Below the pieces are notes generated by a model. The model did no database searches, was not told the origin of the DNA, and saw only the letters and a list, made by a program, of their open reading frames with translations. 64,000 nt of DNA from Bacteroidota bacterium. GTDB lineage: Bacteria; Bacteroidota; Bacteroidia; Flavobacteriales; BACL11. The stretch spans positions 14,609 through 78,608 of the forward strand of contig JAYZEM010000003.1 in NCBI GenBank assembly GCA_036337275.1, written 5' to 3'. This document shows positions 3,489 to 34,388 of the stretch, one piece after another. The first letter of the stretch is position 1, and each line of letters starts with the position of its first letter. The position numbers and the translations under genes are program-made.

Positions 3489-4484
3489 ATGAAAAAGACA
3501 CTATTAACACTTGCAATTTTTGCAGGATTAACATTAACAACAAAATCACAAACAACTAACGGTATGTACGCACAAATTAAAACAACAAAAGGAGAGATTT
3601 TAATTCAATTGGAACATGAAAAAACTCCACTAACTGTAGCTAATTTTATTGGTTTGGCAGAAGGAAAAATTAACAACAATGCAAAAAAAGAAGGGGCTCC
3701 ATACTATGATGGTTTGAAATTTCATAGAGTTATTGCTGATTTTATGATTCAAGGTGGCTGCCCAAACGGGAATGGAATGGGTGATCCTGGTTATAAATTT
3801 CCAGATGAATTTCATCCAGACCTGAAACATTCTGGTCCTGGAATTTTATCAATGGCAAACTCTGGTCCTGCTACTAATGGAAGTCAGTTTTTTATTACAC
3901 ATAAAGAAACGCCATGGCTAGATGGAAAACATACCGTATTTGGGCATGTAATAGAAGGTCAGGAAGTAGTGAATTCAATTGCACAAGATGACATAATGGA
4001 GTCTGTAACAATTATCAGGAAAGGGAATACTGCTAAGCAGTTTGATGCTTCTAAAATTTTTAATTCTAAACTAGAAGAAGTTAAAAAAGAAGAAGCAGAA
4101 AAAGTAGAAAAGCAAGCTGAAGAGTTAAAAAAATTAACATCTGGAGCAAAAGTAACTGAAAGCGGATTAGCTTATAAAGTTATTAATAAAGGAAAGGGGG
4201 AAACGCATCCAACATCTACAAGTACAGTTACTGTTCATTATACTGGAAAACTAACAGATGGAACTATATTTGATAGTTCAGTAAAAAGGGGAGAGCCTGC
4301 CACTTTTCCTTTAAATAAAGTAATCTCTGGATGGACAGAAGGAGTACAATTAATGGTAGTTGGTGATAAATGGACATTTATTATTCCTTCTAATTTAGCT
4401 TATGGTGAAAGAGGAATTCCTCAAGCTGGAATAGGGCCAAATGCTACTTTAATTTTTGAGGTAGAACTTTTAGAGATTAAGTAA
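3489..4484 (+). CDS. Peptidyl-prolyl isomerase, cyclophilin + FKBP fusion, with signal peptide
   Basis: [13 protein letters not shown] and GSQFFITH (cyclophilin); VHYTGKL..FDSS and LIFEVELL (FKBP). Confidence 0.95.
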
Positions 4485-4510
4485 TCTGATTTCCTATTAT
4501 TAAAAAGAGA

Positions 4511-4533
4511 AGCCACTAAATAGTGGATTTTTT
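4511..4533. terminator. Possible bidirectional terminator between convergent genes
   Basis: CCACT-AAAT-AGTGG stem followed by a T run; weak stem. Confidence 0.4.
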
Positions 4534-5242
4534 ATTTTTCTAAAAGCAGAAAAATTGTTGGTTTCTTATGAATGTTAAAGTGCATTTGTTTCCATTCTTC
4601 AATTGCCATTGTATTAATTTTTTCAGAAGGAAGTGTGATGTTAGTTGCAATGCAAAGCCTTGCGCTTTTACTACAATGTTTAAGTATGGAGTCTAAAAGT
4701 TGATGATTTCTATAAGGTGTCTCCATAAATATCTGAGTCTGATTCAGCTTTCTTGATTGATTCTCCATTTGTTTAATCTTTCGTTCTCTCTCTTTTTTAT
4801 CAATAGGTAAATAACCATGAAACACAAAATTTTGCCCATTAAGCCCTGATGCCATAAGTGCAAGGAAAATGGAAGAAGGGCCAACAAGGGGCACTACATC
4901 AATATTAAAATCATGCGCGTATTCTACAATTGCTGAGCCAGGATCTGCAATGCATGGCAATCCGGCTTCTGAAATAATTCCTACATCTTCTCCTTTCAGA
5001 ATATGAGGTAGAAAATCTGCTTCTAAATTTATTTCATCATGCTTTCCATAAGTGTAAAATGTGCAATCATCTATCTCTTTTTGTTTATCAACTTTTTTAA
5101 TGAATCTCCTTGCAGAACGCACATTTTCAACAATAAAAATATTAATATCTTTAATGTGATTTACTATTAAAATAGGGAAAAAATTAGTGCTTTCGATATC
5201 ACCAAGCAAGGAAGGGATAAGGTATAATTTTCCTTTAGCCAA
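4532..5242 (-). CDS. SAM-dependent methyltransferase, RsmI-like (tetrapyrrole methylase fold)
   Basis: ISEAGLPCIADPG, VGPSS and ETPYRN motifs. Confidence 0.85.
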   Translation of the reverse strand: MAKGKLYLIPSLLGDIESTNFFPILIVNHIKDINIFIVENVRSARRFIKKVDKQKEIDDCTFYTYGKHDEINLEADFLPHILKGEDVGIISEAGLPCIADPGSAIVEYAHDFNIDVVPLVGPSSIFLALMASGLNGQNFVFHGYLPIDKKERERKIKQMENQSRKLNQTQIFMETPYRNHQLLDSILKHCSKSARLCIATNITLPSEKINTMAIEEWKQMHFNIHKKPTIFLLLEK

Positions 5243-12822: not shown

Positions 12823-14660
12823 GAATCTTACTTATTCTATCTGTTTGTTGTTTTTTTGCTTGCCAAAGAGTTGAGGTAAAAGAGTACAAAAGCTACTTAA
12901 ACCATCATGACACTATAAGGTACATTGGAAAAGAAACATGTAAACAATGCCATTTAGAGATTTACAAGTCCTTTATGCAAACGGGTATGGGACAATCCTT
13001 ACGCCCAGCTATTAAAGCATATTCTGCTCTAGCAAATACAGTAACTGTTATTCATGATGAGGATAAAAATCTATTTTATGAACCTTTCTGGAAAAAAGAT
13101 TCTTTATGGTTGCACGAATTTCAGCTAAAAGGAAAGGATACTACCCATTCTTTAAAGCGAAAAATAAATTACATTATTGGTTCTGGACATCACACCAATT
13201 CGCATTTGTTTGAGGAAAATGGATATCTGCATCAAATACCCTACACCTATTATACGCAGGAAAAAGTTGCAGATTTACCTCCTGGTTTTGAAAAAGGAAA
13301 CAACAGTCGTTTTAGTCGAAAAATTTGCCTGGAATGTGTAACTTGCCATAATGCTAACCCTACTAATGTAGAGGGTTCTACTCATAAATATACCGTCATT
13401 CCTAATGGTATTGATTGTGAAAGATGCCATGGGCCAGGTGAGGCGCATTTGAAACAAATCCAATCTGGCAATTGGGTGGATACTTCCAAATACATTGATT
13501 ATTCCATTGTGAATCCTGGAAAACTGCCATTGGATTTACAATTTGATGTTTGTCAAAGGTGCCATTTACAAGGCACTGCTATACTTTCTGAGGGTAAATC
13601 TTTTACCGATTTCAAACCAGGGCAGCACCTAAAAGAAGTCATGGATGTGTATATACCAAAATATGAAGGAGATGAATCTTTTATTATGGCCTCGCATGTG
13701 GAAAGACTGAAAGAAAGTGCATGCTTCAAAGCAGGGGAGATGAGTTGTATTTCTTGCCACGACCCCCACAAAAGCGTGCGTACTACCACTGTAACATATT
13801 TTGACAATAAATGCATGCAATGCCATGAGATGTGCAAAGAGGAAGAATACCAAAATGATTGTGCTTCTTGCCATATGCCAGCATCTTCTTCTACTGACAT
13901 ACCACATGTAAGCATTACCGATCATAAAATTGGAATTCACCATAAAAAGGTAAAAACTGGAAAAGGAGCCTTCTTAGGGCTTTTTGCCATCAACAATGAC
14001 AACCCTAATAATTTGTCAAAAGCAAAAGCTTATTTAAAGCGTTTTGAAAGTTTTGAGCCAAACCCTATCTATTTAGATTCTGCTTTTAAGTTTTTACAAC
14101 TTTCATCTAACAATTACACTTCTTTTATAGCATATTATTATTTGAGAAATAAAAATAAAGAACTTATCAATTTTGTAATGAGTAATAAGCTAAATGATAA
14201 CAAATATTCCTGTAATGATATGGCGATGGCATATATTAGAATTGGAGAAACTTATGTTAAGGAAGGTCTGAATATTGATGCGGAAAAATTTTATAAACTA
14301 GCAATACAACTTATGCCGTATGAAATTGATTACAAAATAAAATATGGTTCATATTTGCTAAATACAGATAAAAAAGATGATGCATTTATTGTATTTACTA
14401 ATGCTTTAGAACTAAACCCTACAATAAAAGAAACCCACTTGAATTTAGGATATATTGCCTTGTTAAATGCAGAATTTGAGAAAGCAAATAATAGCTTAAA
14501 TAAAGCAATTGCATTAGACCCAAATTATGTGTTAGCATATGAAAACCTAGTTTTATCAGCCCAAATGCAAAATAATATAGTTGATGTCAAGCGTTATTTA
14601 AAGAAAATTTTGGAAATTGCTCCCAATCATAAAGCTAAGGAAATCTTACAAAACTTTTAG
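12819..14660 (+). CDS. Multiheme (7x CxxCH) c-type cytochrome lipoprotein with C-terminal TPRs
   Basis: CKQCH, CVTCH, CERCH, CQRCH, CISCH, CMQCH, CASCH; FFAC lipobox; TPR pattern (A..LNP, AI.LDP) at the C-terminus. Confidence 0.85.
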   Translation: MRILLILSVCCFFACQRVEVKEYKSYLNHHDTIRYIGKETCKQCHLEIYKSFMQTGMGQSLRPAIKAYSALANTVTVIHDEDKNLFYEPFWKKDSLWLHEFQLKGKDTTHSLKRKINYIIGSGHHTNSHLFEENGYLHQIPYTYYTQEKVADLPPGFEKGNNSRFSRKICLECVTCHNANPTNVEGSTHKYTVIPNGIDCERCHGPGEAHLKQIQSGNWVDTSKYIDYSIVNPGKLPLDLQFDVCQRCHLQGTAILSEGKSFTDFKPGQHLKEVMDVYIPKYEGDESFIMASHVERLKESACFKAGEMSCISCHDPHKSVRTTTVTYFDNKCMQCHEMCKEEEYQNDCASCHMPASSSTDIPHVSITDHKIGIHHKKVKTGKGAFLGLFAINNDNPNNLSKAKAYLKRFESFEPNPIYLDSAFKFLQLSSNNYTSFIAYYYLRNKNKELINFVMSNKLNDNKYSCNDMAMAYIRIGETYVKEGLNIDAEKFYKLAIQLMPYEIDYKIKYGSYLLNTDKKDDAFIVFTNALELNPTIKETHLNLGYIALLNAEFEKANNSLNKAIALDPNYVLAYENLVLSAQMQNNIVDVKRYLKKILEIAPNHKAKEILQNF

Positions 14661-33047: not shown

Positions 33048-33245
33048 AGAATATAAAGAGAATTAAGACGAATTATTGTATTCAAAAATGAAGAAATTAA
33101 TAATTAAAGCAGAAGGAAATAAATTAAAATAGATTAGATGAACATCATATCATATTGATTTTCTGTATTTTATGTAAATTTAAAAAATGTCATTAAAATT
33201 TGGGATTTTCATTTATTTCTGATTAGTTTTATAATCACCAAAACA

Positions 33246-33260
33246 TAGTATTAACCAAAA
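33246..33260 (+). promoter_or_regulatory. Conserved leader motif TAGTATTAACCAAAA, copy 1
   Basis: Identical to 33938-33952; ends 10 nt before ATG 33271. Confidence 0.7.
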
Positions 33261-33270
33261 CTAATGTAAT

Positions 33271-33468
33271 ATGGCTTATGAGCACAAAAACAGTAAAGGG
33301 CAAACTTACTACTTACACACACAAGAAGTAAAATTAAAATCGTCAAACAAACAACAGACGATTTATTTCTTTGCTAAAGACAAAAGATCGAATGCTTGTG
33401 ATATTCCAGCAGGGAAGACGGTTGTTGAAAATAAAAGAACAGGACTTCCTTTTTTGAAAAAAGCTTAA
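33271..33468 (+). CDS. Small basic hypothetical protein, paralog 1 (65 aa)
   Basis: 39/65 identical to the protein at 33964; own terminator; 13 K/R vs 5 D/E. Confidence 0.9.
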   Translation: MAYEHKNSKGQTYYLHTQEVKLKSSNKQQTIYFFAKDKRSNACDIPAGKTVVENKRTGLPFLKKA

Positions 33469-33493
33469 TTCTAATCTTTTTACCCAAAAACAT

Positions 33494-33524
33494 GAAAAAC
33501 CCCAAAAAATTGGGGTTTTTCTTT
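33494..33524 (+). terminator. Intrinsic terminator
   Basis: GAAAAACCCCAA-AAAA-TTGGGGTTTTTC stem plus T tail. Confidence 0.85.
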
Positions 33525-33937
33525 ACACTTTAGCTTAATAATTTTCCACTATTTTTAAAGCAAAACAAACTATAATTAGAAAATTTTAACTGAGAAAAAG
33601 TACTAAATCAAGCTTTTTCTAGAACAAATTATTATTTTTTAATCTCTATTTATTAACCGTTTTAGAGGTGTAAATTGTCGTTTTTTATAAGCAACCCTAA
33701 TTTTGAATTTGCATTTTAAAACTACTAGGTTAGAGGCTGTGTATCTATTTGATAAACAGATAATTAAATTGCCATGCAAATCGTCGGTTTCTTAGTAACT
33801 ATTTCTTTTACTAGGTTAGTAAGTGCTTATTTTTCTTTTTGTTAATCTATAGTTATTAACAACTGTTTTTCAAATATTTTGAAGTAAATTAGTCAAGATA
33901 CAGTAATTTTTATAAATTAGTAGCAGAAAAATTAACC

Positions 33938-33952
33938 TAGTATTAACCAAAA
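33938..33952 (+). promoter_or_regulatory. Conserved leader motif TAGTATTAACCAAAA, copy 2
   Basis: Identical to 33246-33260; ends 11 nt before ATG 33964. Confidence 0.7.
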
Positions 33953-33963
33953 AATTATTAACT

Positions 33964-34161
33964 ATGGGCTATTCACACACAAACAAAAAAGGAACAACTT
34001 ATTACTTAAATTGTAAAGATGTTACTTTAAAGTCAACTGGAAGAGTACAGAGAATTTATTATTTCTCAAAAGATCAAAGATCTACAGCTTGCGATCTTCC
34101 TGATGGAAAAAGAGTTGTTGAAAATGACAAAACTGGATTACCATTCTTAAAAGGTAAATAA
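33964..34161 (+). CDS. Small basic hypothetical protein, paralog 2 (65 aa)
   Basis: Gap-free alignment to paralog 1; own terminator; 13 K/R vs 6 D/E. Confidence 0.9.
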   Translation: MGYSHTNKKGTTYYLNCKDVTLKSTGRVQRIYYFSKDQRSTACDLPDGKRVVENDKTGLPFLKGK

Positions 34162-34184
34162 GTCAAAAACACAGCTAAAAATTT

Positions 34185-34213
34185 AAAAGCCCTGATTCTA
34201 GGGCTTTTTTTTT
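34185..34213 (+). terminator. Intrinsic terminator
   Basis: AAAAGCCCT-GATTCT-AGGGCTTTT plus long T run. Confidence 0.88.
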
Positions 34214-34322
34214 ATTCCTAAACTTCTTCTTAACTAAAAAAAGAATGGGAAGTAATTTGTTTTTATAGTACATACTATATATAGAGTCAATGCTTTTATC
34301 TGGTAGTGATTAAATCACTTTT

Positions 34323-34350
34323 TTGTCCTATAATTAATATTATGTTAAAT
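34323..34350 (+). other. dif site (XerCD chromosome dimer resolution)
   Basis: TTGTCCTATAA-TTAATA-TTATGTTAAAT: 11-6-11 layout; XerD arm identical to E. coli dif; intergenic; genes converge on it. Confidence 0.9.
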
Positions 34351-34363
34351 AGAAAATTTAATA

Positions 34364-34388
34364 TAAAAGGGAGTCTCACTCCCTCTTT
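34364..34388 (-). terminator. Possible terminator for the gyrA-peptidase-TPR transcript
   Basis: AGGGAGT-GAG-ACTCCCT stem followed by TTTATA on the minus strand; about 140 nt after the stop. Confidence 0.45.

Follow-up and report, generated by a model that had tools for sequence, protein, structure and literature searches.

Within the 64,000-nucleotide stretch analysed here (the window; forward-strand positions 14,609 to 78,608 of contig JAYZEM010000003.1, in assembly GCA_036337275.1 of a Bacteroidota bacterium of the order Flavobacteriales), two plus-strand genes for small basic proteins stand in tandem. They belong to a large protein family that, in the reading we tentatively favour, would bind nucleic acids. 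Gene A (33271-33468) and gene B (33964-34161) are open reading frame (ORF) calls for 65-residue basic proteins, predicted to be all-beta, with A the divergent, genus-specific paralog and B the conserved ortholog of the lineage. BLASTP aligns the two products without gaps at 39 of 63 identical positions (E 3e-31) and, as the final two residues of A and B are not alike, the identity over the whole length is 39/65; the net charges are +8 for A and +7 for B. The pair lies inside a 1483-bp gap between ORFs of at least 100 residues, the largest of the 55 such gaps in the window (second largest, 278 bp; median, 3 bp), which has a coding fraction of 0.94. The source assembly (914 kb, 58% complete, 33% G+C), of a small genome from a marine bacterium, contains no family copies other than A and B, and the relatives of the source genome include a 0.3-Mb genome of the same order.

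Each gene is closed by a termination signal of its own on the plus strand: (i) for A, an intrinsic-terminator hairpin (33494-33521) with a 12-bp stem between an A-tract and a T-tract, its arms 100% complementary, and (ii) for B, an intrinsic terminator (34185-34217) composed of a 10-bp stem hairpin (34185-34208) and a T-run. Terminator-like sites in the 1.7-kb region number 4, versus 0.7 expected from shuffles. In the A orthologs the hairpin is found at the same place, and a hairpin with a T-run stands 3′ of every ortholog examined in the order. The original prediction, made from the letters of the window, had described two gap-free 65-residue paralogs of this identity and these charges, each a stand-alone unit with its own terminator and with unusually long non-coding flanks; ORF calls, BLASTP, the charge count, the hairpins and the size of the gap against the window median uphold all of this.

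Relatives of the pair were sought in 41 genomes of the order, the source genome (G000) counted in. The protein family is matched in 23 of them, including every one of the 8 other genomes in the genus, 12 of the 16 from other genera of the taxonomic family (where it is single copy) and 2 of the 16 from other families of the order. Two matches, i.e., the tandem pair, occur in 8 of the 9 genomes of the genus. The remaining one, G007, has a single match, with copy A absent and about 830 bp (3959-4791 of the G007 locus) without an ORF in its place; in G004, copy A is interrupted by an internal TAG (C18:2117-2305). The younger paralog A seems dispensable on these two counts.

Within the genus, B orthologs are 91-97% identical, and a search of the related genomes gave 70-78% between B and the genes of other genera. 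Measured against the single-copy genes of four other genera in the taxonomic family, B is 69-75% and A 51-63% identical; against the gene of G032, from another family, the values are 48-49% for B and 37-43% for A. Because A is thus less identical than B to the single-copy orthologs, B is best taken as the ancestral, conserved ortholog and A as a faster-evolving duplicate born in this genus. Both copies are under purifying selection, with ratios of nonsynonymous to synonymous substitution rates (dN/dS) of 0.02-0.24 overall (A, 0.02-0.20; B, 0.05-0.24). Synonymous divergence (dS) of B is 0.14-0.76, compared with proportions of synonymous differences (pS) of 0.46-0.82 for two flanking genes in the same genomes; because its dS is low beside the synonymous differences of the flanking genes, B is unusually constrained at silent sites as well, a pattern that is common in highly expressed genes, would also suit a gene under some other constraint, and is not proof of such expression. 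Since they are under purifying selection and have relatives in many genomes, A and B are not chance ORFs; they are real genes, separately transcribed, and tandem paralogs.

The DNA upstream of the genes is itself conserved. Over five genomes of the genus, the 495-bp spacer between A and B has a mean column identity of 77%, unlike the genes that flank the conserved pair, in which synonymous sites are saturated. All of the following elements are given on the plus strand unless stated. A leader motif, (A)ACxTAGTATTAACCAAAA, lies at 33242-33260, about 10 nt before the start codon of A, and recurs as a direct repeat before B at 33934-33952, where it is 95% identical to the copy before A; TATTAACCAAAA or a near variant stands roughly 10-30 nt before the start codon in every ortholog examined, other genera included. 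An inverted copy of TACTAGGTTA is found at 33933-33942, within the region of the B leader motif. The spacer also holds two direct copies of the 11-mer TACTAGGTTAG, the first (33723-33733) in an invariant block of the five-genome alignment and the second (33809-33819) 86 bp past it and 114 nt before the inverted copy, which starts at 33933. Two copies of TTATTAAC in 33650-33860 (33650-33657 and 33853-33860), each within a 23-nt direct repeat, are followed by a third at 33955-33962, so that 3 of its 7 matches in the window fall within the 313 bp before B, all on the plus strand; the TTATTAAC stretch is kept throughout the genus. Lastly, GTTATTAACA recurs about 115 nt upstream of the orthologs from other genera, in a different gene context. 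Because the long 5′ flank travels with the gene, its motifs being kept in the different contexts of other genera, it looks like a regulatory region with several candidate binding sites. RNA structure in the leader is not supported (fold z-score, -0.83); an Rfam scan returned sub-threshold, terminator-like rows only, and no tRNA was found in the window.

Contigs of four RNA-library runs were compared with the locus, and their cover is confined to parts of the A and B coding regions. Metatranscriptomic contigs of two studies cover B with 0 differences (X2, 33973-34135; X3, 34021-34172), and another run of one of those two studies covers 33951-34135 with 7 differences; an RNA-library contig carries TAGTATTAACCAAT as unaligned letters before its first matched base, 33951. 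Gene A is covered at 33268-33428 by run X1, which carries a flag as probable DNA. None of these contig sets covers the spacer, the flanks or the neighbouring genes, an absence from which nothing follows. Taken together, the contigs are compatible with transcription.

The family to which the two proteins belong is large. At E<=1e-10, B finds 91 proteins; at E<=1e-3, A finds 523 representatives (50% identity); and the family profile gathers 3,524 clusters at 90% identity. A and B match their relatives and the family profile over the full length, with the motifs N.KG.TYYLH, Q.IY[YF]F[AS]K, LP.G..V.EN and TGLP.LKK, and in an alignment of 84 sequences L15, F34 and P46 are invariant, with G10, Y13, E53 and G58 nearly so. 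Neither A and B nor the 84 members have a significant match to any model of Pfam, NCBIfam, PHROGs or PADLOC; for A, the top Pfam rows (DUF4469, E 0.092; DUF7830, E 0.15) both fall short of their cut-offs. When the profile was run against the sequences of every PDB chain, 23 rows came back at E<=10, none significant (best 0.11) and none a Cren7 or Sul7 chain. An insect titin (P0098; E 3e-15 with A) fails the family profile and was set aside as a spurious summed repeat match. A full-text literature search returned no description of the family, though it was too limited to show that the family is undescribed. Small basic nucleic-acid-associated proteins are, as a kind, known; this family and its apparent fold are absent from the libraries searched.

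Named records place members in Saccharibacteria, Peregrinibacteria, Peribacteria, Gracilibacteria, Berkelbacteria, Nealsonbacteria and candidate division Kazan, and also in Dehalococcoidia/Chloroflexi, Planctomycetales, Chitinophagales, Verrucomicrobiota and Thermoplasmata archaea. A spread through Patescibacteria, Chloroflexi and archaea, put forward in the original prediction, is thereby confirmed by family searches and genome samples. When the phylum of a Saccharibacteria genome (Patescibacteria) was sampled evenly, 64 of 301 genomes carried the family, always in one copy; in a Bacteroidota sample it was 2 of 301, G000 included, and a 5.3-Mb genome of that phylum, G166, has the gene. Compared with one Patescibacteria-type sequence, members from different phyla show 65-83% identity. 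Among 50,697 phage records, one holds a relative of the member P0097, and none was found among plasmid records. Loci from other phyla were collected to the number of 80, of which 75 were analysed, 5 being dropped since the search pattern missed the gene. The net charge is positive in all 75 members (median +6, range +1 to +11), the gap upstream of the gene is 216 bp at the median, versus a background of 33 bp, and a terminator-like hairpin is present at 62 of the 75 loci, with the gene typically alone. Clustering of the 637 flanking ORFs at the 80 loci revealed no partner gene conserved across lineages, only lineage-specific synteny.

A confident AlphaFold2 model built from the 84-sequence alignment has a predicted local distance difference test score (pLDDT) of 91 and a predicted template modelling score (pTM) of 0.67, with five strands (residues 4-6, 12-21, 28-35, 49-53 and 60-64) and no helix; a long hairpin carries the conserved aromatic residues. 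The protein had been predicted to be beta-rich, and the model agrees. A Foldseek search found no convincing structural relative (best E 0.14, root mean square deviation about 10 A); the model thus appears to match no recognised fold, and a missing match is no proof of a new one. For P0174, a natural tandem-domain protein, the model (pTM 0.46, linker pLDDT <50) is not informative as to domain arrangement. No similarity to Cren7/Sul7, to the cold-shock domain (CSD) or to DUF5679 came out of sequence-profile and fold searches of A, B and the members; DUF5679, which the original prediction had named for comparison, is not listed when A, B and the 84 members are scanned against Pfam.

The weak Foldseek rows do bear on one alternative, since they are proteins of the oligonucleotide/oligosaccharide-binding (OB) fold: ribosomal uS17-type chains, single-stranded DNA-binding proteins (SSBs) and the Pf3 ssDNA-binding protein. 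They would suit an RNA-directed protein, i.e., an RNA chaperone of the cold-shock type or a factor associated with ribosomes or translation rather than a DNA binder, as would a small, basic product with aromatic-rich beta strands and a monocistronic gene that, like cold-shock genes, has a conserved leader and a strong terminator. Genomic context points the same way at two places: the G032 gene adjoins an ORF (438 residues) for a DEAD-box-type helicase, followed by typA/BipA, and typA lies 3′ of copy B in four genomes of the genus. In model bacteria, both DEAD-box-type helicases and typA/BipA have ties to cold adaptation and to the assembly of ribosomes. To this may be added a fusion of the family domain to TRM13-type CCCH fingers. 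Even so, we regard an RNA-directed role as quite unlikely.

Natural fusions give further hints as to what the domain does. The family profile confirmed the domain in 55 of 56 long proteins. It is joined (i) in P0380 to helix-hairpin-helix modules (HHH_5/Cdd1/DUF4332), (ii) in P0150 to two TRM13-type CCCH fingers and (iii) in P0368 to a Lys/Ala/Pro-rich, H1-like tail; (iv) it forms the N-terminus of a Shedu SduA nuclease in P0203 and (v) the C-terminus of a KAP/QatA-like NTPase in P0182. Thermoplasmata-type proteins have two copies of the domain in tandem. In another set of proteins the domain is combined with secretion signals, repeats or membrane anchors: P0371 has a lipoprotein signal, immunoglobulin-like and CarboxypepD_reg domains and the family domain last; P0096, P0363 and P0365 are Cys-rich proteins with a signal peptide; P0376 has MORN repeats; and P0110, P0131 and P0139 are membrane-anchored tandem forms. 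Two further architectures were encountered. The sub-family P0384-P0392 (e.g., P0389) comprises proteins of 163-164 residues in which the domain (residues 1-60) is followed by some 100 conserved residues at the C-terminal end, for which neither Pfam nor PADLOC gave a match. Four cluster representatives (P0131, P0359, P0362 and P0366) are membrane-anchored, with two tandem domains and then DUF2188 (PF09954).

The secreted and membrane-anchored fusions invite an explanation in which the domain has no nucleic-acid role at all and is instead a protein- or ligand-binding adaptor, e.g., a beta-hairpin unit for a conserved cellular or envelope component, its charge being incidental. Such an adaptor would agree with the patchy spread, which is typical of accessory functions, with weak structural likenesses limited to propeller blades and trefoil units, and with the marginal matches of single members to WW, choline-binding and MORN-type hairpin repeats. 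It is, however, hard to square with a net positive charge in every one of the 75 members, with the 70-83% identity between phyla, which implies a universally conserved target, with the lack of any cross-lineage conserved neighbour as a possible partner in the 80 loci, and with several fusions to DNA-directed domains. We therefore consider an adaptor unlikely.

Because of the net charge, the conserved aromatic strands and the domain fusions, we instead favour nucleic-acid binding with a lean to DNA as the role of the family protein, albeit tentatively and with slightly less than an even chance of being correct. The original prediction, too, had proposed binding of nucleic acids, which is a reasonable reading. 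The domain would constitute a compact nucleic-acid-binding module, in which a five-strand sheet, with the conserved Y13, Y14, L15 and I31-F34 and with many Lys/Arg residues, would make low-specificity contacts to DNA, RNA being the less likely partner. Where the module stands alone, the protein may serve as an accessory nucleoid or nucleic-acid-coating protein produced from a strong monocistronic unit, for which the long conserved upstream DNA, with its repeated TACTAGGTTA and TTATTAAC, would provide the regulatory region; we infer both the abundance of the protein, at which the low synonymous divergence and the RNA-library cover of the coding regions hint indirectly, and its regulation through the repeats. 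In other organisms, the same module may have been joined, for sensing or anchoring, to nucleases, NTPases and further DNA-binding modules.

Several observations weigh against nucleic-acid binding of this sort. First, the model appears to contain no recognised nucleic-acid-binding fold. Second, there is no obvious vacancy for such a protein in the order: HU genes are present in 41 of the 41 relatives (in G000 at C5:60768-61034) and CSD genes in 32 of the 41, and because both coexist with the family, the family replaces neither. Third, the patchy spread (21% of the sampled Patescibacteria, 2/301 Bacteroidota) fits an accessory better than a core chromatin protein. Fourth, the secreted, MORN-repeat and membrane-anchored fusions listed above suggest a site other than the cytoplasm or a target other than nucleic acid. 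Finally, the RNA-library contigs are not proof of transcription, with X1 probably DNA.

A broader synthesis can be drawn that would join these strands, and we rate it as doubtful when taken as a whole. Herein, an unrecognised small beta fold would be a general DNA/RNA-recognition module. One Patescibacteria genome in five, along with scattered other lineages, would use it as an accessory protein of chromatin present in abundance, and a universal target would have allowed it to spread horizontally. Immune proteins of the Shedu and KAP/QatA types would have taken up the same module, more than once, to sense nucleic acids. In the genus studied here, the duplicates A and B, which have a leader motif in common and repeated sites upstream, would make up a small two-protein circuit that regulates itself.

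Downstream of the pair lies a dif site, which the original prediction had placed about 160 bp past the second gene. The 28-mer (34323-34350, + strand) has an 11-6-11 architecture, TTGTCCTATAA-TTAATA-TTATGTTAAAT (XerC arm, spacer and XerD arm), and lies 161 nt past the stop codon of B, as proposed. Its 21-bp core has one exact match in the 914-kb assembly and, at up to 2 mismatches, is present in 35 of the 41 genomes of the order, once per genome in 28, whereas a reversed control pattern of the core has matches in only 2 of 41. The XerD arm is one we take to be identical to that of E. coli dif, and in G018 the left arm is GGTACCCATAA. The maximum of the cumulative GC skew of the 220-kb contig C3 falls in the 45-50 kb bin, in which dif also lies, and the window shows the same turn; gene orientation converges there, ORFs being mostly on the plus strand before dif and mostly on the minus strand after it. 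An XerD model exceeds its cut-off at C3:8944-9807 of G000 (349 bits), and a second Xer-like gene is present on C6 (255 bits). Because it is single copy, is kept in the order, and coincides with the skew maximum and the convergence of orientation in a genome with Xer genes, the dif site is, to judge from this combination, real, and its presence beside the pair was correctly foreseen. Kono et al. (2011; PMC3025954) give dif predictions for 19 of 19 Bacteroidetes, 14 of them by a proteobacterial profile, and Krupovic and Forterre (2011; PMC3091885) note dimer resolution in the phylum as without experimental study at that time.

Several side observations concern the site and its surroundings. The core, ATAATTAATATTATGTTAAAT, is identical at every position in many genera and in several families of the order, and it could serve as a terminus marker in fragmented assemblies of this order. 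In all three closed relatives (G017, G028 and G037), the distance between dnaA and the dif motif is a mere 0.27-0.38 Mb or so, and the two do not lie opposite each other; this position does not sit neatly with dif as terminus, and dnaA need not mark oriC. The explanation would be either a long distance between oriC and dnaA in this order or a strong inequality of the replichores. On contig C3, outside the window, the minimum of the cumulative GC skew at 150-165 kb, about 110 kb past the maximum at dif, is unexpectedly near for an origin; noise, a rearranged stretch or a mis-joined assembly may account for it. A GC-rich hairpin with a 7-bp stem, AGGGAGT CTC ACTCCCT (34368-34384), 18 nt past dif, precedes a convergent gene for a tetratricopeptide-repeat (TPR)-like protein of 394 residues and may be the terminator of that gene.

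The closeness of gene and dif raises the question of a role for the twin proteins at the replication terminus, which the original prediction had held possible, e.g., as accessories to XerCD/FtsK recombination at dif. Copy B ends 161 nt from dif in the window, and in three genera the gene is within 95-172 bp of it (G018, 95 bp; G004, 120 bp; G019, 151 bp; G000, 172 bp to the 21-mer); distances of 0.7-2.4 kb are seen in five other genomes of the genus (G003, about 0.7 kb; G007 and G008, about 2.0 kb; G001 and G006, about 2.4 kb), followed by 7.6 kb in G032, from a different family of the order. The separation, however, widens to 89 kb in G009 and to about 0.3 Mb in the closed genome G017; in G021 the exact motif is on another contig, and in the remaining genomes the gene and the motif are on separate contigs. 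Furthermore, all of the close cases belong to a single block of conserved gene order (large surface protein, lipoprotein, gene, dif, TPR protein) and therefore count as one inherited event, and in G017, G009 and G013 the gene occupies another conserved context (surE, Zn-peptidase). Between B and dif (34162-34322 in the window), four genomes of the genus (G001, G006, G007 and G008) have a gene for a typA/BipA-like GTPase of 587-589 residues, two of them with a 124-residue ORF as well; G003 has a 178-residue ORF there, and G000 and G004 have nothing. Gene content right at the terminus is thus being reshuffled within the genus. In the loci of other phyla, a loose dif-like match occurs in 4 of 80, none convincing, and the dif consensus of those phyla may differ. 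With the link absent from other genera of the taxonomic family and from these 80 loci, a terminus role is not supported and is, in our estimate, highly improbable; the linkage is real, and the closeness looks like inherited synteny, a single arrangement, rather than function. An element integrated at dif was also considered and rejected: no second dif-like site flanks the pair, other windows having at least 9 mismatches.

These results bear on more than one locus. By coating or reading nucleic acids, basic proteins of small size help to shape both the chromosome and the expression of its genes, and little is known of them in Patescibacteria and in streamlined marine bacteria. For a large, conserved family without a curated model or a solved relative, reused at the ends of anti-phage nucleases and NTPases, a function and a structure would annotate thousands of genes, and might show what is recognised by one class of sensor domains in Shedu and Qat systems. 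Independently of the family, our analysis records a dif core that is well conserved in this order of Bacteroidota.

Among known systems, the small beta-rich DNA binders of Crenarchaeota, i.e., the SH3-like Cren7 and Sul7d (about 60 residues), come to mind, as they too are tiny, basic and all or mostly beta, with five strands. Cren7 and Sul7d are abundant general DNA binders. The two differ from the present family in that no PDB chain matches it by sequence, neither protein is among the fold matches, and its spread is quite another, covering Patescibacteria, Chloroflexota, some Bacteroidota and Thermoplasmata. With HU/HupB-type and Hc1-type proteins that bear H1-like tails, the family shares the small, basic, accessory-nucleoid kind, and P0368 carries a Lys/Ala/Pro-rich tail; unlike HU/IHF (PF00216), it has an all-beta predicted fold rather than that of the HU dimer, and the HU/IHF model matches neither A and B nor the 84 members. 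The cold-shock proteins (CspA family; CSD, PF00313) resemble it in their length of about 65-70 residues, their five beta strands with many aromatic residues, their monocistronic, strongly terminated gene with a conserved leader, and their high conservation between phyla. CspA is acidic. The proteins of the family, in contrast, are strongly basic, and neither a CSD match (E<=10 for A and B; E<=0.1 for the 84 members) nor a supported superposition on the OB fold was obtained. Lastly, the variable sensor domains of Shedu (SduA) and KAP/QatA systems offer a comparison of another sort: whereas A and B are free-standing, match no PADLOC model and adjoin no defence gene, the same domain is terminal in the enzymes P0203 and P0182, which are distant relatives.

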